From the NCBI GenBank assembly GCA_965208125.1, contig OZ242320.1, positions 4,352,001 to 4,416,000 of the forward strand: a stretch of 64,000 bases of DNA, read 5' to 3'. The translations under genes were made by a program, and so were the position numbers. Shown here piece after piece: positions 374 through 24,003 of the stretch. The first letter of the stretch is position 1; each line of letters begins with the position of its first letter. Under the pieces are notes generated by a model, which was given only the letters and a program-made list of their open reading frames with translations, did not search any database and had not been told where the DNA came from. This stretch comes from Candidatus Latescibacterota bacterium. Its GTDB lineage: Bacteria > Latescibacterota > UBA2968.

Positions 374-413
374 GGCATACCTACAGGAGTCAATAGTGTA
401 GAATATCAAACGA

Positions 414-1062: not shown

Positions 1063-1135
1063 ATTTATAAAATACCGCAATTAGCTTGGAAAGGGTAGAG
1101 TAAATTTGTTTGTCTACCAAACTTGGGATCTGCCA

Positions 1136-2026
1136 TCAACGCACCTGCCCCATAGGCCATTCCGAGGTCGGCCTACCTTGCCACGTTGATCGCCTGAAGA
1201 ATCGCCCGCCTGGGGGGCGGCTAAACCAGCTACTAATTGCGATTCCCCAAAAGTGCTCAAAGGACCTGTCTTTTAGATTTGCGTCACAGTATGCGTAGTG
1301 CGACAAGACCTCGTCGAGGAATGACTCTCCGTATATCCAGAACCCATAGAAATCCTTAGCGGGATCTGTGATTTCGACGTCTCCCCAGTCTATGATCCCA
1401 GTAAGTCTTCCGGTCAAGGGGTCATGATAGATGTGTTTGTACCAGAGGTCGTTGTGAGCCAGCACAGACTCGTATGAATGATCGATGCTTTCACTTCTTT
1501 CGATCCATGCTTCGAAAACATTGCGGACCTCACATTGAAGCTCGTCAGCCCGTTCAACGAATAACGCCTTCCACATCCTGCGACGCCTAACCGATGTGTC
1601 GCCCTCTTCTACGCCGAGGCTCCGTGCCTTCGCGACCGGGTAGCTGTGGAGTTCGCTGATGAAAACACCCAGCCTCTGAGCGGCCTCACTGCGGTTCGCC
1701 TTGGAAAGTCTCCAAAACCGCCACGGCGAGAGTCGAGTCCCCGAAATTGTGTGGTATCCCGCAAAATCTGACGCCTTCGGCACGAATGCATAGTCGGGAA
1801 TGGGTATTGCCTTCAGGTTGCTTCTAAGGGCATCCAGGACGGTCCGCTCCCTCGTCAGATTTGTATCCACATCGTTCTCGAACCGGAAAGCGATGCCATT
1901 GTCCAACAGAATCATTACATGATCGGGATCGGCAATGGTCTGAACTCTTCGGTAATTTGCCCACATGAGATCTGGAAAGGCGTTTCTGATTCTCTCCAGG
2001 TAGTAGCTGGAAGCCAATGGGGGCAT
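1136..2026 (-). CDS. Aminoglycoside phosphotransferase / choline kinase-like protein
   Basis: HNDLWYKHI and IIDWGD motifs; start moved to ATG 2026 because the longer ORF crosses an attC. Confidence 0.8.
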   Translation of the reverse strand: MPPLASSYYLERIRNAFPDLMWANYRRVQTIADPDHVMILLDNGIAFRFENDVDTNLTRERTVLDALRSNLKAIPIPDYAFVPKASDFAGYHTISGTRLSPWRFWRLSKANRSEAAQRLGVFISELHSYPVAKARSLGVEEGDTSVRRRRMWKALFVERADELQCEVRNVFEAWIERSESIDHSYESVLAHNDLWYKHIYHDPLTGRLTGIIDWGDVEITDPAKDFYGFWIYGESFLDEVLSHYAYCDANLKDRSFEHFWGIAISSWFSRPPGGRFFRRSTWQGRPTSEWPMGQVR

Positions 2027-2062
2027 GGGGACCTGCCAAAGAGGATTAATTGTCGCGATTTC

Positions 2063-2117
2063 CGCTAACTGTTGGGTGAAGCCCGAATGGCCGAAGCCGT
2101 GTACAGTCGTGTTATGC
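2063..2117 (-). repeat. Short attC-like site, probably internally deleted
   Basis: GCATAAC-ACGACTGTACACGGCTTCGGC...-GTTAGCG (minus); left arm resembles the site at 15123-15206. Confidence 0.65.
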
Positions 2118-2196
2118 GGTGTGCTCACTTCATTACGGCAGGAGAAACTCTGTGGAAAGGTTCCGCAAGCCTGGAGTTAGTGACCGTGCTCCCTCC

Positions 2197-2673
2197 CTAC
2201 TCACGCTCCACGAAATACTTCTTAAATCCACGACTCGTCCCATCTTGCATACCAAGGCTTCTATAGAATCCCACCTGATCTTCGTTTGGACCGCTGAGTA
2301 ACTGTAGCTTGTAGCAGCCCTTCTCTTCGGCAAGGTTAATCGCAAATGTCATCAGTTTTTTCCCAAATCCTTTGCCTCTTTGTTCGCGTGCAACAACGAC
2401 ATTCTCGATGATAGCCCAAGGGCGCCCTTCGTAAGTAAAATTCGGAACGATTGCCATTATGAGGGTGGCGACTATTTCCTTGTCCGATTCGCCCACAACG
2501 ATGAATATGTTGCCGTAGTCAGACATCTCATCAAAGATCCGGATCGACTCTTCGAGTCCGAGAGTCTTGGCCGAAAGACTATGGGGACGGCTCGTGATCT
2601 GAGGAAAGAGATTTAGCAGAGATTCGACGTCTAATCTGGTCGCAACTCGGCAAGAAATGTCTGAATGATTCAT
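2197..2673 (-). CDS. GNAT family N-acetyltransferase
   Basis: IENVVVAREQRGKGFGKKLM motif A; GCYKLQL. Confidence 0.9.
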   Translation of the reverse strand: MNHSDISCRVATRLDVESLLNLFPQITSRPHSLSAKTLGLEESIRIFDEMSDYGNIFIVVGESDKEIVATLIMAIVPNFTYEGRPWAIIENVVVAREQRGKGFGKKLMTFAINLAEEKGCYKLQLLSGPNEDQVGFYRSLGMQDGTSRGFKKYFVERE

Positions 2674-2689
2674 CCGGTGACCTTTCTCG

Positions 2690-2712
2690 ACTACGGACGT
2701 GTTAGCAGAAGT
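2690..2712 (-). repeat. Truncated attC (left core only)
   Basis: TGCTAAC-ACGTCCGT follows the map stop and matches the first bases of the 15206 site's left arm; the remainder is missing. Confidence 0.55.
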
Positions 2713-2720
2713 CAAGCCGC

Positions 2721-3240
2721 TCAGGCCGCAGTTAGCAAGATAGGCCAGCCATCGGTAATAACGACGGTATGCTCAAAATGAGCCGAAAGAGATCCGTTTG
2801 AGGTCCTCACGGTCCAACCGTCGCAATCTTCAACGGCCCGGGCTGGATGCTCGGCAATCATAGGCTCAATGGTGATCACAAGACCATTCGTAAGCGGCTT
2901 CGAATCGAACGGATTGTAGGTGTTTGCAACGATGGGATCTTCATGGATAACCCGACCTACCCCGTGCCCCGCAAGCTCATTGACAACCCAGAATCCTTGT
3001 CGTTTCACCTCGTGCTCTACGGCATGACCGATGCAATTGATCGGTTTGTTTGCACGAGCTACGGCCACCGCCTTTTCGAATGCCGTACGAGCACATCGAC
3101 ACAATCTATCGGCTTTCGCGGAATATGGAGGAATCGGGATGGTGATTGCTGCATCTGCAATGTAGCCATTCAGTTCAGCGGTGACATCCAGGCTTACAAT
3201 GTCACCCTGTTCCAGCACTCGATCACCCAGAATACCGTTT
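2721..3240 (-). pseudogene. map: N-terminally truncated type I methionine aminopeptidase
   Basis: GDIVSLD, DAAIT, GHGVG.IHE, TIEPMI, SAHFEHT motifs; begins at NGILGDR (cf. HGIP), so the N-terminal third is missing. Confidence 0.8.
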
Positions 3241-3255
3241 TGAAGGTGATAACTT

Positions 3256-4587
3256 TCAATATTTTAGTTTTATTATTTTATTTGCTTCTCGGAGACCGCT
3301 TAAAAAAGCTCCGTGTACCGTTCCTCTATAGTCAAAAATAGTGTGTTCACCAGCAAAAAATACTTTATTGCCAATGGGTTCTTCAAACACCTCAAAATCT
3401 GAACTTCTAGAACCACTAGCAACAAATGAGTAGGCGCCGAATGAATACGGGTTTTCGTTCCATTTTGTTCTTAACATATGAGTTGGGTGAGGTATGTCGT
3501 TTCCATAAATCCTTTTAAGATGTAACATAATTTCTTTGATAATCTGTTCATTTGTCATTGTCTCGGTTTGTTTAGAGTAGTCACCAAAAGCAAAAGTCAT
3601 TAACGCATTGGCATCTGCAAACTTTTTTACATTTAAGAAGTAATTGAATTTTCCTTTTGTCTCGGGTGTATAGCCAATATATTGTAGATCTTCTTCCCAA
3701 AATATATCGTCCCAGACTAAAAGAAATTTATTTACTGTACCCATCTTCAGGTTGTTGATGGCGTTTTGGATTTTATTGGGTAAGGCTGGCGTGAATTGTA
3801 TTACGTTCTTCTTGAGTACACCTAAAGGCACAGTAACCAAAACTATATCTGCTGTATAGTTACCATTAGTTGTTTGAATAGAAACCTTATCTTTAGAATA
3901 GTCAATATCTACGACTTTTGTGTTTAATCGAACATCAATGTCCTGGGCTAAATAATTGGTTATATGGTCGTAACCATTTGTAATGATAACATCTTTGCCC
4001 TTAAAAGCTTCATCATCATCAAAATCTAATGAGGACAGCTTGTAAATATCTCCTCCAGTATCAAATTCTAAAAAGGCTGATAGCATATAAGTCCAAAGTC
4101 TTTGATTTTTGTATTGAGGATATTTTTTATAGAAAATATCTGCAAAACTCTGGTCTCTATTACCTGCCAAATTCTCTAAAATGTCGTTGTACTTATCTTC
4201 TGCTGCGTCTAGTTTTTTAGGGATATATTCAGAACCATCTATGTCAAAAACTTTAACATGGAAATCGTCTGTAAAAAAGGTTTTAGCTCCTGACGCATTT
4301 GCAAGTTTAGTAATAGGGTTTTTTATAGGACCGTGAATCCAACTTGCTCCTTCGTCAAAGGCTACTCCAAGACTTCTATCTGTTTTTAATCGTCCGCCAA
4401 CTTTCTCTTGTGCTTCTAAAACAATAGGATTAAATCCATTTTTCTTTAGTTGATTAGCAGCACTTAAACCTGAAATTCCCGCTCCAATGATGATGACGTT
4501 CTTTTTGACCTGTTTGTTTCTATTTGGACTTAGAACGCTACAGGACGAAATGGCAAAAATAAAGAAAAGTAATAATATTTTTTTCAT
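3256..4587 (-). CDS. Flavin monoamine/polyamine oxidase family lipoprotein
   Basis: Lipoprotein-like signal MKKILLLFFIFAISSC; GAGISG, EAQEKVGGR and FAGEHT...GTVHGAFLSG motifs; markedly AT-rich. Confidence 0.9.
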   Translation of the reverse strand: MKKILLLFFIFAISSCSVLSPNRNKQVKKNVIIIGAGISGLSAANQLKKNGFNPIVLEAQEKVGGRLKTDRSLGVAFDEGASWIHGPIKNPITKLANASGAKTFFTDDFHVKVFDIDGSEYIPKKLDAAEDKYNDILENLAGNRDQSFADIFYKKYPQYKNQRLWTYMLSAFLEFDTGGDIYKLSSLDFDDDEAFKGKDVIITNGYDHITNYLAQDIDVRLNTKVVDIDYSKDKVSIQTTNGNYTADIVLVTVPLGVLKKNVIQFTPALPNKIQNAINNLKMGTVNKFLLVWDDIFWEEDLQYIGYTPETKGKFNYFLNVKKFADANALMTFAFGDYSKQTETMTNEQIIKEIMLHLKRIYGNDIPHPTHMLRTKWNENPYSFGAYSFVASGSRSSDFEVFEEPIGNKVFFAGEHTIFDYRGTVHGAFLSGLREANKIIKLKY

Positions 4588-4610
4588 AGAGATTGGTCCT
4601 AATGGCACAC

Positions 4611-4687
4611 AACTACGAGATTGACGAACAGTTACGATAATACGTACCAAATCTATGTATCTTCGACCTTGCGGAAATTCTTCCCTT
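4611..4687 (-). repeat. Second copy of the attI-like site
   Basis: 67/77 identical to 15970-16046; similarity stops at the GTT core. Confidence 0.8.
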
Positions 4688-4711
4688 TATTTCGTGCTTC
4701 TAACCATTGCT

Positions 4712-5692
4712 TTAGCGAACGTTGGCTCTCTCCTGAAGGTCGGCCAGTCCATATATTTCCGACGCTAATATCCTCATTTTGCATGGGTTTGACTGCAAAT
4801 CTCGGTGGAAGTCGTAGGTCCAGTCAACGGGCCGGAATCCCATGTTCGCGTACAGTGAAAGGGCTGGACCGTTGTCTTCGTTCGTACCGATGATCGCGCT
4901 CCGGTATCCTAATTGCGAGGCGTCGTACAGGCCGCGCTGAAGTGTCAACCATCCGTAGCCCTTCCCCTGTTCTGCCTCCACAACGTCAACATCATTCACG
5001 CAGAGCCAAGGACCCTCTCCCTTCTTTACTTCAGATGTCCTGAATGGGCGGCTGAAGTACACACCAACCTCACTGGCGTTCAGAAACGATGTAACACGAA
5101 GTGCAGGCATGTCGCCATCCTCGGGCACAGTTTCAGATCGGAAATCCAGAGGGCAGGACGCGGGAATCGGTTCCTGCGAGAAGCACGGCCACTCAAGTAT
5201 TACGTGACCTCTACTACGAACGTAGCCACGTGCGGCCAAGAGCCCCTGGACGTGAGCCAGGTGATTCGACAAGCTGGCCTGGGGAAGAGATCTGAAGAAG
5301 GGAAAGTTTCTCGAGAAGATCGTGACCGAGGACGCATTGTTCTCCAATGCGTGAGACTCAACTGCGTTGAGTAGCATCTGGCCAGCTCGTCGGCATCCAC
5401 GTTTGTATCCGAGGAATCGGACAATTCCTCTGCCTGTAGGCCTCATGGTCCCGGTGTGTCCTTGCCCTACTAAGGCAAGCCCAACAACCTCGGAACCTGA
5501 AACAGCGACCAGCTTCACTTCTGGCTGGATCCTTCTGTTCTTTCTTCTCTCGTTTCCTCCAACGGCGAAATCAATTTCGTCGGGAGTAAGGGACCTGCAA
5601 TGCGGAACTCCACCAACCAGATCTGCGAAGAACGTAGCCAGGTCCCTCGCCATACTGCTGGTGTAGTTGACGGTTTCAATTCTGCGATTCAT
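4712..5692 (-). CDS. Tandem-domain GNAT acetyltransferase
   Basis: VVEAEQGKGYG and NGPALSLYANMGF motifs; N-terminal degenerate GNAT domain. Confidence 0.75.
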   Translation of the reverse strand: MNRRIETVNYTSSMARDLATFFADLVGGVPHCRSLTPDEIDFAVGGNERRKNRRIQPEVKLVAVSGSEVVGLALVGQGHTGTMRPTGRGIVRFLGYKRGCRRAGQMLLNAVESHALENNASSVTIFSRNFPFFRSLPQASLSNHLAHVQGLLAARGYVRSRGHVILEWPCFSQEPIPASCPLDFRSETVPEDGDMPALRVTSFLNASEVGVYFSRPFRTSEVKKGEGPWLCVNDVDVVEAEQGKGYGWLTLQRGLYDASQLGYRSAIIGTNEDNGPALSLYANMGFRPVDWTYDFHRDLQSNPCKMRILASEIYGLADLQERANVR

Positions 5693-5758
5693 TTTTGAAC
5701 TGACCGTTCAGTCAAATTGTGAAAACCTCAAGAGAAAGTCTAATCATCTTCGCTTGTA

Positions 5759-6283
5759 TCAGTCAACCCATTTCGTCTTTGAAGTAAAGTCTTTGATTTC
5801 TTCTTCCAGGTTCCTCAGAGATTCCTCAATTTTCTTTATTTCCGCCTCCGGTGCATCCTTAAGTCGCAAGTTTTCCAATCGAAGTTGCAGGATTTCACGC
5901 TGCGTAACATAGCCGTAGCCTTTGAGTTGAGTTACAAGATTCGGGAACCCAATATGCTGCGTGTCCCAGTCCAGGATTGTGTATTGAGCTATCTTCCTGC
6001 CTTCCACTTTAAAGGTGACAGACTTCCCTTCTGCTACCTGAGAAACGTAAATAAAGCCCCGCTTCCGAAAGCGCTCATTGTCGCTATTCTCAGCGAGCAA
6101 TCGAGTTAGTCCTTGAACTTTTCGGAAGTGTTCATCGACTCTGCTCACAGCCTTGCTGAATTTCTGGTGATTGAATTGGTCCAGCCTGACTTTCCACCAA
6201 TCCTCTGCTTGTGAAACCGTTGTTGAAAGGAGTACTGCAAGTAGGGTGAAAGCAAGAATACGATTGCCCATGTGGTCCACCAT
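5759..6283 (-). CDS. Secreted hypothetical protein with C-terminal coiled coil
   Basis: Signal peptide ILAFTLLAVLLSTTVSQA; EK-rich C-terminal helix. Confidence 0.6.
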   Translation of the reverse strand: MVDHMGNRILAFTLLAVLLSTTVSQAEDWWKVRLDQFNHQKFSKAVSRVDEHFRKVQGLTRLLAENSDNERFRKRGFIYVSQVAEGKSVTFKVEGRKIAQYTILDWDTQHIGFPNLVTQLKGYGYVTQREILQLRLENLRLKDAPEAEIKKIEESLRNLEEEIKDFTSKTKWVD

Positions 6284-6370
6284 TTTAAAGGAAGAGGGGT
6301 TCGGGTTGATCAGAAAGATTTCTGCGTCAGGTTCAAATTTGTTAATGCCTGAGATGTGAGCCTACTCACT

Positions 6371-6425
6371 GTTGTGTTATGCGGCATGCTCACTTCTTTA
6401 CGGAGGGAGAAGCTCTGTGGAAAGG
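6371..6425 (-). repeat. Cassette 3'-end element with left attC core, repeated at 2106-2160
   Basis: 48/55 identical to 2106-2160; contains GCATAAC (minus). Confidence 0.7.
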
Positions 6426-7783
6426 CCCCCCGAGAAACCTCTTTCTTTGATTTGCGCCACGAAGCCATTGATCTCCGCCTGACTCAAGATATCATTTCCA
6501 CTTATAATAAGCTGGCCACCCAGGTGAGCCAGGTTCTTCAGTCCTCTCAGACTTCTTAGTCGTGGATTGTTGCTGATTTCCAAATGGCCGCCAATGGATG
6601 TAAGATGCTCCAGGCCTTCCAGACTCTCCAGTTGTTCGTTCTGGCGTATGTAGAGGAAGCCTCCAATTTCCTTTAGTGCTTGCAGACCATCGAGGACGGC
6701 AAGGTTGTTGTTGGCCGTAATATGTATGCCGCGGGAGACGTACCGTAGGCTTCGCAGCCCCTGCAAGTCTCGCAGGGAGTGGTTAGATACGATCAGCAAG
6801 CGACCATCAATAGACTCGATTCTATGAAGTCCCTCCAGCGACGCCAGCTTTGGATGGCCGTCCAGGCGGAGATCCCTTGGTACAGTTTTGATTCTGTTTA
6901 GGGATGCGATGCTCTGTAGTGATTCGTTGTGGAGTATGTAAATGTCTCTGCCTACTCTCTCTACATTGAGCCCATCCAGGTTGAGCAGGTCGGGATTCCG
7001 AATAAGCTTCAGGTCCCGCGCTACATTGGTGATCGTCTCACATTGGGTAATGCCATGAAGACCATCGCACCGGAAGATGCATAGATCACCGTATGTGGCA
7101 GCCAGACGATTATGCGATATGTCCTTCTCCTGGAGGCCTGGCGATAGGTGGGAAAGGATTGTCGTCAAGTATTCAGGCCATTGATGGTCGGTCATATCGA
7201 TTCTGCATACTCGGACGTCCAGCTTGCCAATTAACTCATCCGTCATCTCTCGAAACGCGGTATAGAGTTGGGCGTAGCCAGCGAATCCTCTCCACCCATT
7301 CCTCTTAGCCCGAGCCCGTGTGGTGACCTTGAGGTTGATCTGGGTATTCTCCCAGCGATTTCCCCGGTCATCACAGGTACGTCGCAGGAAACTCGGCACG
7401 TCAGACTGCATCAGATAAACCACAGTCGGGTTGAGTTGCGAAACTGCATTAATGACTCCTCGAACGTAGTTCTCGATTGTGACGGGTTCAACGTCGTTGA
7501 AGAACAGCTCTGCCGTATTGCGATGAAATAGCTGGCCATCGAGGACGGTGACCGAATCGTTCTGCGCTCTTGAGGCGGTGAAGTCTCGCCATCTTTCCAG
7601 ACTCTCCTCTATCTGGCAGGCCTCGCCTTGCCACTCCATCCGAGTTGGATGATTTGGATCCTTCTCATGAATATGTGCGGTTGGTATCCCGTTTCGTTCA
7701 AGCTGCGAGCAAAGGAACTCTGCTGTATTGGTCTTCCCGGAGCCAGGGATTCCTTCCACAAAGATCAACTTGGTGTTCAGCAA
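6398..7783 (-). CDS. P-loop nucleotide kinase-like domain fused to receptor-L/leucine-rich repeats
   Basis: IFVEGIPGSGKT Walker A; repeated LxxLxGLxxLxxIGGxLxIxxN units; TTG start after GGAGG. Confidence 0.7.
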   Translation of the reverse strand: MLNTKLIFVEGIPGSGKTNTAEFLCSQLERNGIPTAHIHEKDPNHPTRMEWQGEACQIEESLERWRDFTASRAQNDSVTVLDGQLFHRNTAELFFNDVEPVTIENYVRGVINAVSQLNPTVVYLMQSDVPSFLRRTCDDRGNRWENTQINLKVTTRARAKRNGWRGFAGYAQLYTAFREMTDELIGKLDVRVCRIDMTDHQWPEYLTTILSHLSPGLQEKDISHNRLAATYGDLCIFRCDGLHGITQCETITNVARDLKLIRNPDLLNLDGLNVERVGRDIYILHNESLQSIASLNRIKTVPRDLRLDGHPKLASLEGLHRIESIDGRLLIVSNHSLRDLQGLRSLRYVSRGIHITANNNLAVLDGLQALKEIGGFLYIRQNEQLESLEGLEHLTSIGGHLEISNNPRLRSLRGLKNLAHLGGQLIISGNDILSQAEINGFVAQIKERGFSGGLSTELLPP

Positions 7784-7888
7784 TGCAGCCTCCGTGATGG
7801 CTGTAGTGTTCTGCCCAAAACGGCCTCTCACGAGCTTGTTGGCTCGATTACATAAACACCAGAACGGATGCAGTTCTATGTGGACCTG

Positions 7889-8635
7889 TTAAGCACCCTG
7901 TGGGGGACCGGATATAGGTTTTCCCAACCTCATGAGTAATAACATCGGCCAACCAAGATCAAAATCTTCTGGAAACTCAGTCCAGTACTCCTTCGCTCTG
8001 GGCGACTTCTCAAGCAGGCATTCGTCAGCAAGATGCTCCTCAATGCGATCAATCTGAAGTTGGGCCTTCAAGGCTGCATTGACATAGTCCGCGGTCTGGT
8101 GGTGATAGCCCTCGACGTTAACCTTTTGGCCTGTCTTCATATCAGTGAAGCGAGCCTGTAGGCGACGGAGACGCATCGCTGGGTGGAGTTCTGAGATGAG
8201 AATGAAACCTCCTGGCCGACAGATCCTCGCCATTTCTCCGATTACTGGATCCAAACCAGAAATGTGCTCCAGGACGAGGCAGCATAGGACGCGATCAAAG
8301 GTATCATTCTCGAATGGGAGGCGCTCTGTCAGATCATGGGTAACGAATCGCACATCGTGGTCTTTCGTCTTCTCAATAGCTTGCGCCATCATTTCTGGAG
8401 CGAAGTCAATTGCGGTCACCCTGGCACCTGCTTCTGACAGATAGAGGGTATGACGTCCCGTACCGCAGCCGATATCAGCGACGCTGAGTTCTTGGACATT
8501 CCCCAACAGGGATCGCAATAGCGGCTCTTCCAAAATAATCAAGGAATTGTCCTGCGTATCGTACGTCTCAGACCAACGAGCGTAGCCTTGCCGGACAGGT
8601 ACGGTTTCAAGATCGGCCCCAGACCCGTCATTCAT
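7889..8635 (-). CDS. Class I SAM-dependent methyltransferase
   Basis: VADIGCGTGR, LPFENDTFD, RPGG motifs. Confidence 0.9.
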   Translation of the reverse strand: MNDGSGADLETVPVRQGYARWSETYDTQDNSLIILEEPLLRSLLGNVQELSVADIGCGTGRHTLYLSEAGARVTAIDFAPEMMAQAIEKTKDHDVRFVTHDLTERLPFENDTFDRVLCCLVLEHISGLDPVIGEMARICRPGGFILISELHPAMRLRRLQARFTDMKTGQKVNVEGYHHQTADYVNAALKAQLQIDRIEEHLADECLLEKSPRAKEYWTEFPEDFDLGWPMLLLMRLGKPISGPPQGA

Positions 8636-8856
8636 GTTGTATGCCTCCAGGATAATGCCGGTGGTCCTGCCCAAAGTTAATACTCAAATAAGATAGCCCC
8701 AACAGCATCGAGTCGATATTGGTTGCCATCGTATGCAATCGTCGTAACGGAGCATTCACGCATTACTTCACCACTGTATGGGTCATTGCAGAATTCCGGA
8801 CTGATGCGACTCAGTTCTTCAGATTCGCCCCCGACTGAACACAACTCGGTGGAAAA

Positions 8857-9576
8857 TCATGACTTACTCGATTTGTCCCTCTGCGCCAACATCTGTTGTC
8901 TAACTTTTCTCTTTAAGTTCTTCTTTCTCTCCCGCTCTTCCTTTTTTTTCTGCCGTTCCTCTCTTTTTGTTTTGCGATGCTGTTGGCTTTTTTTAACCTT
9001 CTGAATCCATTCTACTCTATTGGCTAAGATTTCAGGGCTACTCTTTTCGCCATATGAAAGCTTGTTTAGAAAATCTATAATTTCATGCTGTCTTCCTCCA
9101 ATTAAATCTGTGGCTCCAGGCCGAGTCAGTCCTCCCTCAAGTTCCCAATGATACCTATGAATCAAGGTGTCTATGAGGACCATCTTCTCTTTTGGAGATC
9201 TCGCAGTCTGGTATTTTTGGAGGAACTCTTGGAGAAAGACCGTGAGACCAGAGGCAGCAAGATGCTTACCTTGTTTGGCTTTATGATACTCGCCCCAGGT
9301 GAGTTCCCAGTTGCACGATTCGCATCTCAGAATCGTATCCTTCATACCGTCGTGGTCTATCTGGCGATCACATAATGGACATCTTGCTCGTCCAGTACTG
9401 GCTTCTCGTGCTTTGAAAATGCTTTCGATACGAGCGAAGAGTCCAATCCCCACGTCTTCAATAAGCTCTTCGTCTACTATGCCCTGTGCATCAGTTGCAT
9501 AAAGGCGGGCTATTTTTTCTCTTGGAACTCGACTTGCCCAAGTTGGCCTGTCGTGTCTTGGTTTCGGGTTGCTCAT
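8857..9576 (-). CDS. Hypothetical protein with zinc ribbon and basic C-terminal tail
   Basis: CPLC...CESC; K/R-rich tail. Confidence 0.65.
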   Translation of the reverse strand: MSNPKPRHDRPTWASRVPREKIARLYATDAQGIVDEELIEDVGIGLFARIESIFKAREASTGRARCPLCDRQIDHDGMKDTILRCESCNWELTWGEYHKAKQGKHLAASGLTVFLQEFLQKYQTARSPKEKMVLIDTLIHRYHWELEGGLTRPGATDLIGGRQHEIIDFLNKLSYGEKSSPEILANRVEWIQKVKKSQQHRKTKREERQKKKEERERKKNLKRKVRQQMLAQRDKSSKS

Positions 9577-9717
9577 GTATTCCTTAGAGATTTTTCAGGT
9601 TGGTCGATTTGGTGAAAACTCGAAGAATCAGAAAAGTTCGAGAATATGATGGGGAGTGGGTTCTGTTTTTGTTTTTGCACGCTAAAGGGTTTTTCTGGGT
9701 GGTGTTGGGGCGATTGC

Positions 9718-9857
9718 CCATAACGTCTCGCCGGTTGCCGATGTGGCCGTGATCAGTTAAACAAATCGCTGCTTTTACAATCAGGAAACACAAAGCTTCA
9801 CGAGCCATTTGGGTCGGAGCAACCGCAGGGAGCGGAGCCTGCAACTTGATGTTAACT
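9718..9857 (-). repeat. attC-like site (140 bp)
   Basis: AGTTAAC...CCGGCGAGAC-GTTATGG (minus); left end GTTAACTGC (+) matches the start of its own cassette at 12226. Confidence 0.8.
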
Positions 9858-9906
9858 GCTGTGGCGGTGCCGGGCTGCATTTGCCAGGACAGCAAATGCG
9901 GCTTCG

Positions 9907-12210
9907 TCAGGAACATCCGAGGTGTTCATCAAACCAAGCGACAATGCGGTTCCAGTAGTCCACTTGATTGGAGTATTCCCACTCACTTGGGGCATGTCTT
10001 TCGCCTTCGTACTTTGCATACACCACCTCTTTTCCAAGACGACGAAGGCCAACAAATATCTCATCGGCCAGAAACGAAGGTACCGCATAATCGACAGCTC
10101 CGTGGATAATAAAAAGTGGCGTTTGTACCCTATCGAGGTAGAATACGGGTGAATTCTCGATATACCGATCCCGAAATTGCCAGGGGGTGCCGCCCATTCT
10201 ACCTTGGCCTTCCTCTGCCCACGGGAGTCCATAAGTTGATCCATCTTTTCTCATTGCCCCATACGCGCCCAGTAAATTACCTTGCGCTGCACTGGCAACG
10301 GCTGCCTTAAAGAGTGTTGACTGAACAATCAACCCCAGTACGCAATATCCGCCATAGCTGTGACCCATTATCCCAAGACGATCAGGATCGGCAATCCCCA
10401 TCTCAACTGCTTTGTTTACACCCGGAAGCACGGTCTTGGCAAGGTCTTGCATCGGGGTTCCCACTTGAAGGGGCGCATCAGGAGAGAGAACTGCGTATCC
10501 TCGTGTGGCGAGCAGCTGTAGGTTATCAACTCCAGAGCCTTCTAGGCCGAACGTATTTAGGTTGTTCGACCCCCACCTGCCACCATACACGCGAACTACA
10601 AGTGGATACCGTCTTCCTGATTCATAGTTGGGCGGAAGCAACAACGCACCCCGTAGCCTCTGGCCATCGGCACTTCTCCATTCGATGAGACGACTCGCTC
10701 CCATGCTAGTCGCGTCAAGCAACGGATTAAGGCAAGTTAATCGTCTTGGATTCTGGAAATCAACGTCTGAGATCCAGATATCCTCGCTATGCTGAGCACC
10801 CTGTTTTATGTAAGCCACACGCTGCTCATCGTCAGAAATATCGATGGTATAGATGGTAGGGCGACCGCAATCCGCATCCTCTTCAAAAAGTCGTGTTAAC
10901 TGTCCCGTAGTCAGGTCAACTTTGTAGAATCCAATGTGTCTGGTTTCATCATCCCGTGTAATCAGAAACAGTGATTGACCTCCATCTGGCGACCAGAAGC
11001 GTCCCCCTTCCGCAGGAGAAACCACTTCCATTATTTCTCCACCTGAAATACGTGTAATATGCGTCGCCGTTGCATCAGGTACAGAGATGCGCCATAAAGC
11101 ATCAGAAACGAGGCAATAGAGGTTTTGTCCCTTGGAGTCCCATAAGGGAGCACGATAAACATGGTAAAAATTGGGATGTGGTTCCTTAGTCAAGTTTCGT
11201 GGCTCACCTCCGCTGGCAGACACAACGAAACAATCTCCGTCTGATATATAACTGAGTAGCTGCCCATCGGGAGACCAGCTGACGGAAATTGCGCGCTTTT
11301 GTTGAATATCTGTTGCAAAGACTTGAGAGCGAGTATCAGACAGAGAGACAACGATGAGTTTATTCTCCAAGATTGTAAATGCAATGTTCATACCATCTGG
11401 AGATATCCAGTAGCCGAGGACTTTCATTCGGTGTACGATACGTTGCACCTCTCCATTGGAAACATCGATCAAGGCAAGATCAGAAAGGTAAATATTCGTG
11501 ACCTCAATTTCTTGCATGTTGTCCTGCTGTTGTCCCACGTCATCTCCCTGCTTTGTGGCTTCGGGTGAGCGGTAGACAGCGACTGAGGGCTGATCTGCTT
11601 CTTTTTGATCATCCTTCGGCAATGGAGGACCCATAAAAAGACTGCAAGCTTCTTCAAGCGTCATCCTCTGCGGCAGGATTTTGCAGAGAATTTTCTGACT
11701 ATCCGGTGTCCAACGGACAATTTCGGAACCGTAATAAGGACGTACAATAGCGTCAGATACTTGCCTCAATGTATCGGATGACTTTTCCCACACCCAAAGC
11801 TGTGCTTGGCCATTCTGATCTGAATAAAAGGCAAGATAGTTTCCATTGGGGGACCATACCGGGCCCCAGCCATTACCTTTGCCTTCTGTCAAGCACCTTG
11901 ACTCACCAGATATAGAATTGGTGACCCAGACCTCACAACCAATCCTCAATCTTGGCATGCCTGAGCGACTAAAAAAGCTATATCTTTCATCGCCTGTTTT
12001 CTCCTTTTTTCGAGGGTTTTGGACTGTGTAGGCAACCCACTCGCCATCTGGAGAAAGGTCGATAGGTGTTTGTGGAGAAAAAGAGAGCGACGAAAGTACA
12101 TCTTCAGTTTCTATGTGCATCCATTTCTCCTTACAATAACTGATAGCCTCCACAACAGAGGTTTCTCTTTTGAGGAGGCGCCTTCCTGGCGCCTCCTGGT
12201 TTTCCGGCAC
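9907..12210 (-). CDS. S9 family prolyl oligopeptidase / dipeptidyl peptidase
   Basis: WSPDG beta-propeller repeats; GHSYGG nucleophile, HGAVD and GERH motifs. Confidence 0.9.
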   Translation of the reverse strand: MPENQEAPGRRLLKRETSVVEAISYCKEKWMHIETEDVLSSLSFSPQTPIDLSPDGEWVAYTVQNPRKKEKTGDERYSFFSRSGMPRLRIGCEVWVTNSISGESRCLTEGKGNGWGPVWSPNGNYLAFYSDQNGQAQLWVWEKSSDTLRQVSDAIVRPYYGSEIVRWTPDSQKILCKILPQRMTLEEACSLFMGPPLPKDDQKEADQPSVAVYRSPEATKQGDDVGQQQDNMQEIEVTNIYLSDLALIDVSNGEVQRIVHRMKVLGYWISPDGMNIAFTILENKLIVVSLSDTRSQVFATDIQQKRAISVSWSPDGQLLSYISDGDCFVVSASGGEPRNLTKEPHPNFYHVYRAPLWDSKGQNLYCLVSDALWRISVPDATATHITRISGGEIMEVVSPAEGGRFWSPDGGQSLFLITRDDETRHIGFYKVDLTTGQLTRLFEEDADCGRPTIYTIDISDDEQRVAYIKQGAQHSEDIWISDVDFQNPRRLTCLNPLLDATSMGASRLIEWRSADGQRLRGALLLPPNYESGRRYPLVVRVYGGRWGSNNLNTFGLEGSGVDNLQLLATRGYAVLSPDAPLQVGTPMQDLAKTVLPGVNKAVEMGIADPDRLGIMGHSYGGYCVLGLIVQSTLFKAAVASAAQGNLLGAYGAMRKDGSTYGLPWAEEGQGRMGGTPWQFRDRYIENSPVFYLDRVQTPLFIIHGAVDYAVPSFLADEIFVGLRRLGKEVVYAKYEGERHAPSEWEYSNQVDYWNRIVAWFDEHLGCS

Positions 12211-12219
12211 CGTTATTGC

Positions 12220-12310
12220 AGTTAACGTTTCGCCGGTTTGCGAACCCGCGCAGCGGGTTGCCGAAGGCCAAGGCGCGAACTGCGCCGCAGCGCAAACCGT
12301 GCTGTTAGAG
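12220..12310 (-). repeat. attC-like site (91 bp)
   Basis: CTCTAAC-AGCA-CGGTTTGCG...CGCAAACCG-GCGAAAC-GTTAACT with two internal hairpins. Confidence 0.9.
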
Positions 12311-12351
12311 GACGTTGTGCCTTCCCTGACACCCGACTGACACCGAGATGC

Positions 12352-13173
12352 TCAGGGAATGAAGCACTCATCTCTCCCCCTATGGACAAAGATCGAGTTC
12401 TCGCCATGCTCGCCGAGTTGAAATATGCACTCGAATCCGTAGGATTGCAGCTCCGCTACAAGCCTCTTCCGATCCCGATAACACCTCTTGGGAATGTAGG
12501 CCTTGCCGTTAACGAGGAGCGTGTCACTGCAGGCTTCTACCTGCTCCAGCGCGGAAGGCGCCTTTTCCAGCGGCTCGTAGTAGTAGTCCGTTGACGGATC
12601 GTAAAGGCAATCGCCGTCATAGATATCATAAGTTTGGCCGGTGGAGCGATCCACGATTTTCCTATCTGGGCTATGTCGTCTGGACTCATAAAGCGAAGAA
12701 CTTACGAGGTAGTAGCCCTTGGGCTTCAGCCTAGCCTTGACGCTCTCGAAGACTGATTTGCGCTCTTCGGAGAAGACGATGTGGTTGATGCAGTAACTAT
12801 CAATTATCAAGTCAAACCGGCGCCCACTGTGTGGAATCGCCGTCACATCCACCACCTCATAAGTAATAGCCAAGCCTCGGACGGAAGCTATCTCCTTGGC
12901 CGTCCGGATCGCCTCCGGTATCACGTCATAACCCGTGACTTGGTAGCCCCGTTCTGCAAGAAACAGGGCGACCGGCCCCACGCCCGTCCCAAGTTCGAGC
13001 ACTACTGGATTCGGCGTCTTGAACCGGAGCTTTGGCAAGGCCATATCGAGGAATTCCCGAGACGAGAAATCGTGGAAATCGATGCCACCATACGTCTGCG
13101 TTGCCCAATCTTTCAGACCCATCTGGGTCATGGTCTCGTAACGCCGGGCATTTTCACGGAAATAGTATCTCAT
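12352..13173 (-). CDS. Class I SAM-dependent methyltransferase
   Basis: VLELGTGVG, FDLIID, LKPKG motifs. Confidence 0.85.
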   Translation of the reverse strand: MRYYFRENARRYETMTQMGLKDWATQTYGGIDFHDFSSREFLDMALPKLRFKTPNPVVLELGTGVGPVALFLAERGYQVTGYDVIPEAIRTAKEIASVRGLAITYEVVDVTAIPHSGRRFDLIIDSYCINHIVFSEERKSVFESVKARLKPKGYYLVSSSLYESRRHSPDRKIVDRSTGQTYDIYDGDCLYDPSTDYYYEPLEKAPSALEQVEACSDTLLVNGKAYIPKRCYRDRKRLVAELQSYGFECIFQLGEHGENSIFVHRGRDECFIP

Positions 13174-13188
13174 TCACAATGTCCTCTA

Positions 13189-14125
13189 GGTAGTGTCTGA
13201 AAAGTCGTAAAGTATGTATTTTAGTTGCAGCATACGCCCAAGACAAAGGAGTATGATATGCAACGGAGATACGAACTGAGCGACGACGAATGGCATCTGA
13301 TCCAAGACTTGTTTCCACCGCCGAAGAAGATGGGTCGTCCCCGTCGAGATGATCGTACATTATTCAACGGGGTCTTCTGGATATTGTGTTCAGGTGCAGC
13401 TTGGCGCGACCTACCAGAACGATATGGTCCTTGGCAGACAGCCTTTGATCGATTCTGCAAATGGAAACAGGATGGCACTTTTGATCGCATTGTAGAAAAA
13501 TTGCATCTCAAATTGGATGAAGATGGCCTTTTAGATTATGCGACCTGGATGATGGATGCAACCCATATTCGAGCCACACAAGCCGCAGCAGGGGCGAAAA
13601 AAAAAGGGTAAAGAGGGTGAAGAAGAGCCCCCAGACCACGCTTTAGGACGCTCTCGTGGCGGTTTGACCACGAAAATCCATCTTCTTTGCGATGCAGTCG
13701 GGCATCCTTTAGCAGTGGACCTGCTCCCTGGCAACCAGTCAGAATCCACACAGGCTGAAAGGCTGTTATCAAAGGTACGCATACCCACCAAACAAGGACG
13801 TCCAAGAAACCGACCTCAGTATCTGGTGGCTGATAAATCTTATGATGTCTCACGCATCAGAGTCTATCTACGCAAACGGGGTATCAAGGCTGCTATCCCA
13901 AACAAGGCGATTCCTAAAGGCAGAAAACGGCGTAAGAGAGGACCAAGGCCAAAGTGTGATAAAAGATTATATGCCAAACGCAATATCGTAGAGCGTCTCT
14001 TTGGTTGGCTCAAACACTGCCGACGGATTGTGACTCGGTTTGAAAAAAAGGCGACTCATTTTCTCACTATGGTCAAGCTGGCCTGCATCAGACAACTCTT
14101 CAAAGCTTACTTTTCAGACACTACC
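13189..14125 (+). mobile_element. IS5-family (IS427-like) insertion sequence, 937 bp
   Basis: 17-bp TIR GGTAGTGTCTGAAAAGT / ACTTTTCAGACACTACC; TA duplication at 13187-13188 and 14126-14127. Confidence 0.92.
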
Positions 14126-14128
14126 TAA
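13258..14128 (+). CDS. IS5-family transposase in two frames, split at an A9 run (13597-13605)
   Basis: OrfA WRDLPERYGPW and MDAT; OrfB LGRSRGGLTTKIH, ADKSYD, RNIVERLF. Confidence 0.9.
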
Positions 14129-14220
14129 CGTTTCGCCGGTTTGCGAACCCCGAGCTTGTCGAGGGGTTGCCGAAGGCCAAGGCGCGACCAGCGCCGCAGC
14201 GCAACACCGTGCTGTTAGAC
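14123..14220 (-). repeat. attC-like site with right core rebuilt by the IS end
   Basis: Nearly identical to 12220-12310; GTCTAAC...GGCGAAAC-GTTAGGT. Confidence 0.9.
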
Positions 14221-15105
14221 GACGTGCCCTGCCATTCTCTCGAGTGAGTTCCGGGCTATCCGTTCTATCTCCTCCCCTGGTAACAAAGCAATGTCTTCGA
14301 AATCCACCACCTTTTCTAATGAGCGGATTACTTCCCGTCCAAGGAAGTGGCCACATCCACTGCGCCCCTTTATGCTGAACCAAGAGCCGAAGAATGAATT
14401 CACTGGCTGATCCCCATCTACCAGTTTCAGAAATTCGGTAGCAAGCCAGGCTTTGTTTGACGTGCACCAGGCGAGCCAATTCTCCTCGCCATATTGTTCA
14501 TGCCATGAATCGTCACCAAATACAATTTGCTCGCTACGGACCGCAAATCCCTCGCGATAAAGCTGCCAAAAAGGCCCCTTACCAGACGGTAAACCGCTTC
14601 GTTTGCGGCGCTGTATGTGGAGAAGATGGCCCAACTCGTGGGCAGTGAGGCCGGTCAGCGCCTTCTCTGTAGTGTAGCCACATTCAGCAATGTTCTCTAA
14701 TCCGAAGAGGCAAGCAGACCTCCCTCCAAGGCTAGTGGCCCATCCCGCGCCGCAACCAATTCCCACATAGATCATGAAGAGAACGTCAAAATCCAGATCA
14801 AGAGACTCCTGTGCCCTGCGGTATACTTTATCTATACAGGTTAACAATACAGCTCTCGCCTTTCCCATGGACGGCAACCGCTCCTGCAGATATGGGAAAA
14901 CTTTATCTTTTCCAATCGCGCGCCACCCCCCTTCCTGGCCAATGTAATCCTTTTGCTGTTTTTCGAGCAGTTCGGGCCACTGTGACATGTATTCAGTGGC
15001 CCAAAGCTCCAACTGCGTCTCAAGCGGTTTCACATGGACGGCCTCCCAAAAGGAGAGGAAAGCAGGAAACGTATCAACGATCTCGCACTGTGCCATCTTT
15101 AACAT
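14215..15105 (-). CDS. Putative zinc metallopeptidase (DUF2268-like)
   Basis: AHELGH HExxH motif followed by EGFA; its stop TAA lies inside the attC core. Confidence 0.65.
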   Translation of the reverse strand: MLKMAQCEIVDTFPAFLSFWEAVHVKPLETQLELWATEYMSQWPELLEKQQKDYIGQEGGWRAIGKDKVFPYLQERLPSMGKARAVLLTCIDKVYRRAQESLDLDFDVLFMIYVGIGCGAGWATSLGGRSACLFGLENIAECGYTTEKALTGLTAHELGHLLHIQRRKRSGLPSGKGPFWQLYREGFAVRSEQIVFGDDSWHEQYGEENWLAWCTSNKAWLATEFLKLVDGDQPVNSFFGSWFSIKGRSGCGHFLGREVIRSLEKVVDFEDIALLPGEEIERIARNSLERMAGHVV

Positions 15106-15122
15106 CTTGACCTCGGCATGTC

Positions 15123-15206
15123 GTCTAACGTTTTCGCCGTGTCCGAACCGCGAAGCGGTTGCGCGAAGGCGCCTCAGCGCCGAAGCCGGGCACGGACGTG
15201 TTACGC
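15123..15206 (-). repeat. attC-like site (84 bp)
   Basis: GCGTAAC-ACGT-CCGTGCCCG...CGGACACGG-CGAAAAC-GTTAGAC. Confidence 0.9.
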
Positions 15207-15256: not shown

Positions 15257-15913
15257 TCACGAATACATCGACAGATCATCCCAGTCCGGCCATAGCGTCG
15301 GTCGAGTTAATTTCGGATCGGGATGCCAGTCTTCCCACTCGGCAGAGAACGGACCCAAGTTCTGCTCAATCTCCTCAACTGCCCGCTGGCCTTCTGCATA
15401 GATCGCCTCAGCATCTTCGGCACTCACTCTACCGTCCTGCATACACAGCTCGAGTTCGTCCTCGTTTTTCCACCTCCACTCTCGGTTTGGCTCGACGAGA
15501 ATATCAAGCTGATGGTCCCTCAAGTCGAAACCCAACCGTGTACGCGTCAGCTCGCTCTGCATGTTTACGTACCACCCTAAGAACTCACGCTCTCTTGACC
15601 ATCTGACCCACGTCGCCCGTTGCTGATGGGGGTTGACGACGATCAATAGCTCAGCCCATTGCCAAGTCGAATCCTGAAGCGCCCAGTTGTTCTTGGTCCA
15701 CCGACGTGGCGTCCCAGGCGTGTGGTTTATTAGCTCCGCCTTCTTTGAAGGTGTATTCAGTGGGAGCCAAAGGACGATCTGGATATCAGAATCTTCGACT
15801 ACGGTGACAGGCTTCACATCGATGATTTGCCCATGTTCATCAGTCTCTCGATAAAGAATGGATTCACCGCGGCTAAATATGTTGGCTCCTTGGTACATTT
15901 GGGACTTCCTCAC
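15257..15913 (-). CDS. DUF402 domain protein (first cassette)
   Basis: FLGWYVNMQ, DHQLDILV, WRWKNEDEL motifs. Confidence 0.85.
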   Translation of the reverse strand: MRKSQMYQGANIFSRGESILYRETDEHGQIIDVKPVTVVEDSDIQIVLWLPLNTPSKKAELINHTPGTPRRWTKNNWALQDSTWQWAELLIVVNPHQQRATWVRWSREREFLGWYVNMQSELTRTRLGFDLRDHQLDILVEPNREWRWKNEDELELCMQDGRVSAEDAEAIYAEGQRAVEEIEQNLGPFSAEWEDWHPDPKLTRPTLWPDWDDLSMYS

Positions 15914-15965
15914 ACGGTACAGCCAGAAGATCCTATCAGCCTCGAAGTACCCGCAATGGCATGGC

Positions 15966-16075
15966 GCGTAACTACGGGATTAACGAACAGTTACGGTAAT
16001 ACATACCAAATCTATCTATCTCCGCACGTGCGGGAATTCTTCCCTTCAAAGGTTGTATCCCGAACATGTTCGGGA
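15966..16075 (-). other. attI-like recombination site overlapping the recombinase 3' end
   Basis: GTTACGC core where cassette 1 begins (complement at 15200); not an attC palindrome; conserved second copy at 4611. Confidence 0.75.
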
Positions 16076-16842
16076 ATGCTTCCTATGGAGGCATCATTTC
16101 TATTCAGAACCCGCCTCCTTTCCTCCATCAACGCATCCAACGGACTCTGGATCTTTGCGATATCCCGATTTGTCACCCGCGTATAAATCTGGGTGGTCTT
16201 TGGACTTTTATGCCCGAGCAGTTCCTGGATATACCGAAGATCTGTTCCGTGTTCAAGCAGGTGGGTAGCAAAAGAATGCCGTAACGTGTGTACCGACACA
16301 CGCTTGTTAATCTTGGCTTTTTTATAAGCGCGGTCAAAAATTTTTTGAACCGACCGTTCAGTTAAATGCAGTCCCGGTTTGGCACCCGGAAATAGCCATG
16401 TTTGGGGTTGATATTGGCACTTGTAATCTTGCACCGCCTTCTGGGCAAATTTGGAGAGCATCGTGTACCGATCCTTCCGGCGCTTGCCTTGACGGATATG
16501 AATCAATTTTCGATCCAGGTCGATATCCTCGACCTTCAGCCGGACCACCTCACCCAGACGAAGACCTCCGGAATACGTCAGCAGCATAATCGTCTGGTGT
16601 TTCAGGTTCTTTACTGCATTGAGGAGTCGAAGTACTTCTGCCTGGCTCAACACAGTGGGCAATTTATGCTCTTTTTGAGAACGGGGCAGATTTTCAAGAG
16701 GATATTGATATTTTAACACTCGTTGGAATAGGAATTTCAGGGCACTTACACACTGATTGACGTAACTGTGAGAAGCTCCCTTTTCAAGCAGATGATACAC
16801 ATAAGCTTTATATTTTGGCGATTTTAGATGTTGATATTCCAT
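16012..16842 (-). CDS. Tyrosine recombinase, IntI-like but lacking the IntI insertion
   Basis: KLPTVLS, GLRLGE, GKRRKDR, WLFP, HTLRHSFATHLLE, QELLGH, TTQIY, SPLD; AAGGAG RBS. Confidence 0.92.
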   Translation of the reverse strand: MEYQHLKSPKYKAYVYHLLEKGASHSYVNQCVSALKFLFQRVLKYQYPLENLPRSQKEHKLPTVLSQAEVLRLLNAVKNLKHQTIMLLTYSGGLRLGEVVRLKVEDIDLDRKLIHIRQGKRRKDRYTMLSKFAQKAVQDYKCQYQPQTWLFPGAKPGLHLTERSVQKIFDRAYKKAKINKRVSVHTLRHSFATHLLEHGTDLRYIQELLGHKSPKTTQIYTRVTNRDIAKIQSPLDALMEERRRVLNRNDASIGSIPEHVRDTTFEGKNSRTCGDR

Positions 16843-23095: not shown

Positions 23096-23207
23096 AAATG
23101 AAAAATAAGGTAATTTTATGGGTTTATTTATGTTCATAGGCATATATTGCGATTAAAAATATGTATTTATACATATTACACGTTTGCATTTTTGGACTGG
23201 AGCCGCT

Positions 23208-24003
23208 ATGAGAAAAATGTATTGGACAGACCTGAGGACTTCTAAAATTCAGTGTGCAAACACAGACGGTTCAGATGTCGAAGATCTCGTTGCTACTGGA
23301 TTGCGTATTCCAAATAGCATCGCCGTGGATGAGGATGAGGGGAAGATGTACTGGACGGATGCAGGGGCGTCCAAAATTCAGCGTGCAAATACAGACGGTT
23401 CAGATGTCGAAGATCTCATCACTACTGATGTGTATCTTCCAGGTGGAATGACGGTGCATAAAAAAAAAGATATATTGGACAGACGCGGCTTGGGGAGAGA
23501 CCATGGGGTGCAAAGTACAACGAGCGGACCTGGATGGCTCTCATGTCGAAACTCTCGTTTTCACCGAAATGAGTATTCCCAACGGTATCGTCCTGGATCT
23601 GGACATGGGTAAGATATACTGGACAGACTTAACTAAAATTCAACGAGCAGACCTGGATGGCTCCGATGTTGAAACTCTCGTTTTCACCGAATTACTGCCA
23701 TTAGGGATTGCCTTAGATGTAGGTGAAGAGAAGATGTACTGGACGAACTATAAGGGTGCTGGCGTGTCTAAAATTCAACGAGCGAACACAGATGGCTCCG
23801 ATGTTGAAGATCTCGTTACCGTGGGGTTGGATCGCCCGTCGGGAATTGCTCTGGATGTCGTCAAAGGGAAGATGTACTGGGGGGACTATGACAACTATGG
23901 CACGGCTAAAATTCAATGTGCAAATTTAGATGGTTCAGATGTTGAAGATCTTGTTACTACGGGATTGGATCGCCCATCGGGTATTGCACTGTGCTGCTTC
24001 TAA
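23208..24003 (+). pseudogene. LDL-receptor class B (YWTD) repeat beta-propeller, frameshifted at an A9 run (23460-23468)
   Basis: Six KMYWTD...KIQRANTDGSDVEDLV repeats over two frames; removing one A joins them. Confidence 0.8.

Follow-up and report, generated by a model that had tools for sequence, protein, structure and literature searches.

Organization of the locus

The 64-kb stretch of DNA analysed here, called the window, comes from the 5.75-Mb genome of a Candidatus Latescibacterota bacterium (contig OZ242320.1, positions 4,352,001 to 4,416,000). Its minus strand carries three imperfect palindromes resembling the attC sites of integrons, together with a gene for a tyrosine recombinase related to the integron integrase IntI. 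On that strand the integrase is followed by an attI-type junction and then by putative gene cassettes, all on the same strand (a 'reverse' layout), and each of the three sites lies after a minus-strand gene. The central features are listed below; R1 and R2 are covariance models described further on.

16012..16842, minus strand: IntI-related tyrosine recombinase without the IntI insertion, an internally deleted allele of 276 amino acids (PF00589, E 4e-43)
15969..16010, minus strand: attI-type junction, CCCGTAG|TTACGCGCC, putative crossover 15972 (G) / 15971 (T)
15123..15206, minus strand: attC-type site 3, folds; 29.4 bits with R1, 21.3 bits with R2
14123..14220, minus strand: attC-type site 2, with an insertion sequence (IS) in its R' box, folds; 29.4 bits with R1, 24.5 bits with R2
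12220..12310, minus strand: attC-type site 1, folds; 39.4 bits with R1, 32.8 bits with R2

Anatomy and folding of the sites

The core of site 1 (12224-12306, minus strand) reads AAC-AGCA-CGGTTTGCG...CGCAAACCG-GCGAAAC-GTT, in a wider context of ...CTCTAAC at the start and GTTAAC at the end. That of site 3 (15127-15202, minus strand) reads AAC-ACGT-CCGTGCCCG...CGGACACGG-CGAAAAC-GTT, between ...CGTAAC and GTTAGAC. Both strings had been quoted in a preliminary description of this DNA and are found on the minus strand as quoted. The arms of site 2 are 93-100% identical to those of site 1, and site 2 was correctly singled out as the only site with an extra base in the inner stem, which lies in the 5' arm. 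A blastn search of the whole genome with the three sites found no copies besides the sites themselves.

As in canonical attC sites, the R'' and R' boxes of the window sites end in AAC and start with GTT, respectively, and enclose an L''/L' stem. An A follows the AAC of R'' and a C precedes the GTT of R'. The spacers between boxes and stem are 4 and 7 nt long (4/7), and the R'-L' arm is 3 nt longer than the other. Minimum-free-energy DNA folds of both strands, together with the model alignments, give an alternative 1/5 reading in which GC or CG pairs add 2 bp on each side, followed by one predicted bulged base. This base is A, A and T (minus strand) in the three sites and has the same position in all of them, on the R''-L'' arm after the first 2 bp of the stem, so that the earlier statement that the sites have no conserved bulged base does not hold. 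The terminal folds of sites 1 and 2 consist of two hairpins of 5-7 bp and a 3-bp one, and that of site 3 of two hairpins; the two internal hairpins that had been ascribed to every site thus describe site 3 in full, and sites 1 and 2 but for their small third hairpin. Relative to shuffled sequence, the minus-strand folds of two of the three sites are no more stable than expected (z -0.1 and -0.3). A generic hairpin scan of the window was too noisy for use on its own, and an Rfam scan of window positions 1-24000 at E<=1 gave 0 matches, the attC model of IntegronFinder not being among the Rfam models.

For comparison, four canonical attC sites from three records, all beside canonical IntI genes, were folded. 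Their spacers are 3/3 (the dfrA14 cassette of a class 1 integron), 5/5 or 3/3 (two sites of a cyanobacterial plasmid) and 2/3 (a genome of the same phylum), so the near-equal central spacers of canonical sites are not seen in the window (4/7 or 1/5), and the asymmetry noted earlier is real. Each of the four carries single bulged bases on its R''-L'' arm, at a depth of 5-6 bp in the stem. Bouvier 2009 (PMC2727003) describes extrahelical bases as two or three single partnerless bases on the R''-L'' arm, and terminal structures ranging from 3 nt to a branched fold, the branched one being that of the Vibrio cholerae repeat (VCR) site; a branched loop, which had been counted as a departure from the canon, is therefore not one. 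The stretch after aac(6')-Ib in locus L137 contained no clear site, among seven control loci with a canonical IntI from the same phylum the script found an array in L123 only, and a finder built on minimum-free-energy folds missed class 1 attC sites.

The integrase and the attI-type junction

Among NCBIfam models the window integrase matched TIGR02249 best, with 196.9 bits, below the cut-off of 265, and the match came in two pieces that skipped profile positions 174-235. The closest solved structure is VchIntIA (2a3v). Residues 133-158 of the query (26 residues) take the place of residues 173-240 of the 2a3v chain (68 residues), leaving the query about 40 residues short; the IntI insertion is thus absent from the window integrase. 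No member of the homologue alignment (A1) has an insertion at this position. The Xer models were also below their cut-offs (XerA 191.4 bits against 220, XerC 174.9 against 335, XerD 166 against 330), and two further Xer-like genes lie elsewhere in the genome.

The window integrase is 92% identical to a homologue, P0001. Homologues in a large protein collection are mostly 360-390 residues long (about 370 amino acids when intact) and have an extra N-terminal domain of about 90 residues, in which there is a GRRW...KCW motif. The predicted model of the intact P0001 had a pLDDT (predicted local distance difference test) of 83.5, and its best solved match was IntIA 2a3v (33% identity, E 8e-15), ahead of XerA. 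For the N-terminal domain the Pfam match was to HARP, under the cut-off (E 0.016); its single-sequence model had a pLDDT of 69, and in a wide fold search the best Z was 5.3, with none standing out.

In another genome of the genus, G077, the integrase is intact and 97% identical to P0001. Relative to G077, the window gene has an in-frame deletion of 387 bp between two copies of TTATGTGTATC, which cost the protein 129 residues, made up of its N-terminal domain and roughly half of its core-binding domain. A second lesion, a 1-nt deletion near the 3' end, shifted the C-terminal tail. Given the 387-bp deletion, the window copy is probably inactive. With its deleted integrase, an IS in site 2 and one decayed site, the window array is probably a fossil, a system frozen in this genome.

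The attI-type junction lies about 40 nt past the integrase stop codon, and its last nine letters, the 9 nt from GTTACGCGC, complement the outer R'' of site 3. The window and G077 are about 96% identical through ...CCCGTAGTTA, where the identity ends, at G|TTA, with different genes beyond; from this break the crossover was placed at 15972|15971. An attI beside the integrase and cassettes joined at G|TT are also what canonical integrons have.

Putative cassettes of the window

The genes and remaining array parts, in order from the integrase, are as follows.

15257..15913, minus strand: cassette 1 gene, DUF402/FomD-like (PF04167, E 1e-8; NF049998, E 4e-39, below cut-off)
14215..15105, minus strand: cassette 2 gene, 296 amino acids, no Pfam or NCBIfam match
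13187..14127, plus strand: IS element with 19-nt perfect terminal inverted repeats, transposase in two frames
12352..13173, minus strand: cassette 3 gene, S-adenosylmethionine-dependent methyltransferase (PF13649, E 1e-16)
9907..12210, minus strand: probable cassette 4 gene, S9 peptidase with beta-propeller (PF00326 and PF07676)
9721..9854, minus strand: degenerate attC-type site, ends kept (TTAAC-A ... GAGAC-GTTAT), stem decayed
4611..4687, minus strand: second, partial copy of attI-region sequence (blastn, 87% over 77 nt to window 15956-16075)

The cassette 1 gene is placed between the attI junction and site 3. The boxes on either side of cassette 2, GTTAGAC (outer R', site 3) and GTCTAAC (outer R'', site 2), are complementary at 7/7 positions. 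When the IS and one TA are removed from site 2, GTTAGAGGAC is restored, and this is complementary at 10/10 positions to GTCCTCTAAC, the outer R'' of site 1. Outer boxes that are complementary across each gene are the pattern expected of circularising cassettes. Around the probable cassette 4, an inverted-repeat search found arms at 9851-9873 and 12204-12226 that are 83% complementary. The degenerate site was not detected by R1 at E<=10. A loose site pattern gave 5 matches in 44 kb here, against 23 on the same strand of the whole 5.75-Mb genome.

The transposase matches PF13340 and PF01609 fall on open reading frames 13225-13611 and 13556-14128. The IS interrupts the R' box of site 2 and has TA at both sides, and the transposase frames overlap at an A-run near 13598-13608.

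Covariance models and covariation

The sample for comparison consisted of 80 loci encoding relatives of the integrase and of loci from the same genus and family. Model R1 was built from 18 sites, none of them from the window. In the 64-kb window it found only the three sites at E<=10, on the minus strand (E 2.8e-6, 4e-4 and 4e-4). On the 80 loci R1 gave 28 matches at E<=0.01, of which 14 were training rows, and all 28 were on the integrase strand and downstream of the integrase. For 33 loci with a canonical IntI gene, R1 gave 0 matches at E<=1, and with the filters off, the canonical-IntI locus L123 and three plasmid integron loci reached only 10-14 bits (E>1). Model R2, trained solely on sites from other phyla, likewise found the three window sites and no others in the window (E 7e-5, 0.006 and 0.03 over 110 kb). 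R2 also found a fourth attC-type site, G000:C1:4333660-4333747 (minus strand), 18 kb before the window start (window coordinate about -18340). In the entire 5.75 Mb there were only four covariance-model matches, all on one strand and in one region. The fourth site has 4/7 spacers and lies 30 kb further along the same strand, just after a gene about 66% similar to window 1235-2002.

In the alignment of the 28 R1 matches, 92% of the cells are paired, and changes on both sides occur in 10 of the 11 stem pairs, a result reached in 0 of 500 shuffles. When the partner was shifted by 1-3 columns as a control, 19-40% were paired.

Related arrays in other genomes

Desulfitobacterium sp. Sab5 (L012) has an intact integrase gene with an attI-type junction and then 12 single-gene cassettes after it on the same strand, and every cassette ends in a site of the form ATAAC-A-stem...stem-GRRAC-GTTAT (12 sites). 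Arrays of the same kind after the integrase were found in Bacillota, in Paenibacillaceae (three sites with 4/7 spacers), in Spirochaetia, Nitrospirota and Thermodesulfobacterium, in Bacteroidota (Runella and Arundinibacter), in a Methanoperedenaceae archaeon and in two genomes of the same family as the window. The G077 array has five sites, one of them 4/7 with the ACGT-CC start of window site 3. Archaeal loci with insertion-less family members belong to Methanoperedenaceae, Undinarchaeales and Altiarchaeales.

Hairpins of the form TAAC...GTTA with a stem of at least 8 bp were counted on the integrase strand over 83 loci. Downstream of the integrase (318 kb), 70 had the longer spacer on the 3' side, 4 on the 5' side and 1 had equal spacers; upstream (558 kb) the numbers were 7, 6 and 2. 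The commonest spacer pairs were (1,5), found 19 times, and (4,7), found 7 times. Of the 45 loci whose downstream DNA measured at least 1.5 kb, 32 had at least one such site. Read on the strand of the genes, the shared geometry is YTAAC, a 5' spacer of 1-4 nt, a covarying stem and its return, a 3' spacer that measures 5-7 nt and has AC at its end, and GTTAR. The 3' spacer is thus 2-4 nt longer than the 5' one, lengthening the R'-L' arm by as much, and the terminal structure is variable and often branched. The GG-T or CG-T bulge arrangement of the window sites recurs in G077, in G071 and in the Thermodesulfobacterium locus; most sites of the family are plain 1/5 without a bulged base (19 plain 1/5 sites).

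In 18 of 21 loci, chosen for having sites, the integrase is followed at a distance of 76-234 nt by an attI-type junction, whose context resembles TTCGT-N8-9-(A)G|TTA and contains the complement of the outer R'' of the first site. In the remaining 3 loci the first site found by the script is not that of the first cassette. Within L012 (10850-20500), short G+C-rich hairpins around CCGTCCATGG (repeat family D4) occur after many R' boxes, and also about 45 nt before many sites.

Canonical integrases and phylogeny

A profile search of the whole window genome found no IntI above the TIGR02249 cut-off. The same was true of all five array-bearing genomes searched (L012, L018, L019, L047 and L055), in which the best TIGR02249 matches are the array-adjacent genes, again in two pieces and without profile positions of about 180-230. 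Canonical IntI genes occur in 17 of 168 genomes of the window's phylum and in 0 of the 20 other genomes of its genus. In one genome, G042 (locus L119), a canonical IntI (9941-10957) is directly followed on the same strand by a truncated, insertion-less family member of 284 amino acids (11328-12182).

A tree of 38 rows, with one partial row dropped and 2 Xer proteins included, placed the family (19 rows, support 88/90) and canonical IntI (15 rows, 100/100) in separate groups, both apart from Xer.

Comparison with known systems

The window system resembles canonical integrons in several ways. The tyrosine recombinase is nearest to IntI, a simple attI-type site has its crossover at G|TT, and the cassettes are single-gene and promoterless-looking, lie in one direction, and would carry the outer R boxes with them when they move. 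The sites too are alike, being imperfect palindromes that have TAAC/GTTA as R boxes and combine a covarying L stem with a terminal structure that varies. Unlike canonical IntI, the family integrase lacks the IntI insertion, scores below the TIGR02249 cut-off and, when intact, has the extra N-terminal domain; the integrase and cassettes here are on the same strand; and the spacers of the family are unequal (mostly 1/5; 4/7 here), the extra nucleotides forming one block on the R'-L' arm, whereas the extra bases of canonical attC sites are single and on the R''-L'' arm.

The integrase of the Treponema denticola integron presumably carries the IntI domain. This integron is the named counterpart of the present layout, a 'reverse' or 'unusual' integron (Coleman 2004 as cited in Tansirichaiya 2016, PMC4909258), and it differs in that its primer motif SSQNQAL resembles STQNQAL, a motif found here only in canonical IntIs. 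The archaeal integrons of Ghaly 2022 (PMC9668308) likewise have attI directly downstream of intI, and most of the arrays have no detectable IntI; their IntIs, however, were defined by the IntI-specific domain, which the archaeal members found here do not have. The action of XerC/D on the folded single strand of CTX phage (Escudero 2020, PMC7790495) is a precedent for a recombinase without I2 working on a folded single-stranded site, but there a phage integrates at dif through the host Xer proteins, with no cassette array and no dedicated integrase.

Interpretation

We read the three sites, with a probability of about 0.75, as attC-type sites of a chromosomal integron-like array, the partner being an insertion-less sister lineage of the integron integrases. 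The observations that bear on this reading are the anatomy of the sites, the complementarity of R boxes across genes, the break in homology at G|TTA and the association, across phyla, of the site geometry with the integrase. On this reading the partner lineage is widespread, is without the I2 region, and has its own site geometry and an N-terminal domain of about 90 residues. The preliminary description had gone further and proposed that the sites co-evolved with an integrase lacking the insertion. That the sites go with such an integrase is supported by association, through the neighbouring gene, the cross-phylum arrays and the absence of an IntI above cut-off; co-evolution itself would be a deduction from co-occurrence, the local integrase is a deletion derivative and probably inactive, and two of the three differences from canonical sites that had been claimed fail.

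A number of points weigh against this reading. With its own integrase deleted, nothing can be active in the window, and recombination of the sites by the family, like the strand that would be used, is a prediction from computation. R1 is insensitive and missed many of the sites found by the script; the alignment behind the covariation figures had been fitted to the model, and training rows make up half of it. Under the strict script, 13 of the 45 loci with enough downstream DNA are siteless. The comparison with canonical geometry comprises four folded sites from three records only, and the window sites might still score as attC with the public IntegronFinder covariance model. The tree has 2 Xer outgroups and canonical IntIs from one phylum, and gives no order of branching among the family, IntI and a third pair. 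Several gene-sized modules shared with G077 end at no recognisable site and were for that reason not called cassettes. The metagenome contigs compared with G077, described below, were matched at 90% likeness, and one of the runs may be the source of G077.

The sites might instead be ordinary attC sites within the canonical spread, made by a canonical IntI that was lost or acted in trans, with the neighbouring recombinase a bystander or a decayed IntI. Their TAAC/GTTA boxes, with an A behind the AAC of R'' and a C ahead of the GTT of R', are as in canonical sites, in which, according to Bouvier 2009 (PMC2727003), a conserved G follows the bottom-strand AAC of R'. Canonical IntI does occur in the phylum (17/168 genomes), in G042 beside the truncated family member, and IntegronFinder reports clusters of attC sites lacking integron integrases (CALINs) in Firmicutes, most archaeal integrons also being CALINs. 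We nevertheless regard this as unlikely, and as slightly less probable than the Xer/dif-like scheme considered next: an IntI above the cut-off was absent from the window's own genome and occurred in 0/20 genomes of its genus and in 0/5 array-bearing genomes of other phyla, the arrays keep one position and strand relative to the insertion-less integrase, an attI-type junction is conserved after that integrase, and the intact family members are kept at full length and are not nested in the sampled IntIs.

In the Xer/dif-like scheme the modules would move by conventional double-strand recombination at the TAAC/GTTA boxes, their hairpin potential being incidental. The element to which single-strand recombination is ascribed (Escudero 2020, PMC7790495) is indeed missing from the protein, its scores with the XerA and XerC/D models are nearly as good as that with TIGR02249, and its attI partner is a simple site. 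The stem, however, covaries without sequence conservation, which binding of a sequence-specific kind to duplex arms would not bring about; the arm asymmetry is strictly polar (70 against 4); and the protein is far under the XerC and XerD cut-offs (175 against 335 and 166 against 330) in a genome with two other Xer-like genes. We give this scheme roughly one chance in ten. That the sites are gene-end hairpins of another kind, such as terminators or repetitive extragenic palindromic (REP)-like repeats with no role in recombination, would suit their position just past stop codons, their G+C-richness and the two folds that are no stabler than shuffled sequence. There is, however, no T-run after the sites, the outer boxes are complementary across genes (10/10 and 7/7), G|TTA is where homology with G077 stops, many phyla have the sites linked to an integrase, and the genome has only four model matches, on one strand and in one region; this explanation is very improbable, clearly more so than the other two.

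Proposed mechanism and significance

If the insertion-less family is indeed the partner of these sites, recombination by an intact integrase would, as with IntI, take place at G|TT between the simple attI site and folded attC-type hairpins, the sites acting as folded single strands or extruded hairpins. The one-sided spacer block of 4-5 nt beside the cleaved R' box may set the bend and the choice of strand, and could stand in for the contacts that the I2 region makes with extrahelical bases. The N-terminal domain may add further DNA contacts.

I2 is held to be necessary for cassette capture and to confer single-strand recombination, and intermediates between Xer-like proteins and IntI are lacking (Escudero 2020, PMC7790495). 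The insertion is said to be 'not fully conserved' in the integron-like subgroup of Smyshlyaev 2021 (PMC8138268). Firmicutes are nearly devoid of complete integrons, for reasons not known (Cury 2016; Neron 2022). IntIs were selected by their additional domain in Ghaly 2021 and 2022 (the latter PMC9668308), and detection pipelines require that domain. Our literature search, with most subscription journals outside its scope, found no description of an insertion-less integrase family with such arrays.

Were insertion-less IntI relatives and hairpin cassette arrays conserved partners, strand choice and single-strand recombination without I2 would become testable. This would provide a candidate Xer-IntI intermediate or a case of parallel invention, and gene-cassette systems would extend further through bacteria and archaea than is now known. 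A broader proposal, to which we would give somewhat less than an even chance, is that a second, I2-independent lineage of integron-type gene capture exists, characterised by a distinct attC geometry and an accessory N-terminal domain, with members in Bacillota, Spirochaetota, Bacteroidota, Nitrospirota, Thermodesulfobacteriota and archaea, and is missed by current pipelines because these define IntI by the additional domain. Were this so, the lineage would represent integrons as they were before I2 or else a parallel route to the recombination of single-strand hairpins, and part of the 'missing' Firmicutes integrons, as well as some arrays now filed as CALINs, would be accounted for.

Apparent turnover at the locus and minor features

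G077 and the window have the flank, the integrase and attI in common at the same chromosomal place, and their first cassettes differ. Metagenome contigs from runs coded X1 to X4 follow the attI side of G077 to position 1762 or 1769 and then continue into at least three different sequences; contigs of these runs also switch at the R' of the last site of G077. Window segments 176-1104, 2196-2696, 5701-5875 and 8810-9585 are 92-99% identical to parts of the G077 locus (L126, 8553-14000), in a different order. Extra partial copies of the integrase end and attI, ending in CCCGTAG|TTA, lie at window 4611-4687 and at L126 10383-10551 and 14102-14146 (G077). Among the run joints, one in X2 goes from 268 to 9062 with 1330 other letters, and others 'go back' to about 1602-1716; the joints are explained at least partly by the extra copies of the attI region in G077.

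Window 23200-24000 contains tandem repeats of about 129-138 nt in a plus-strand frame with a KMYWT-like motif in each, which suggests a beta-propeller repeat protein.

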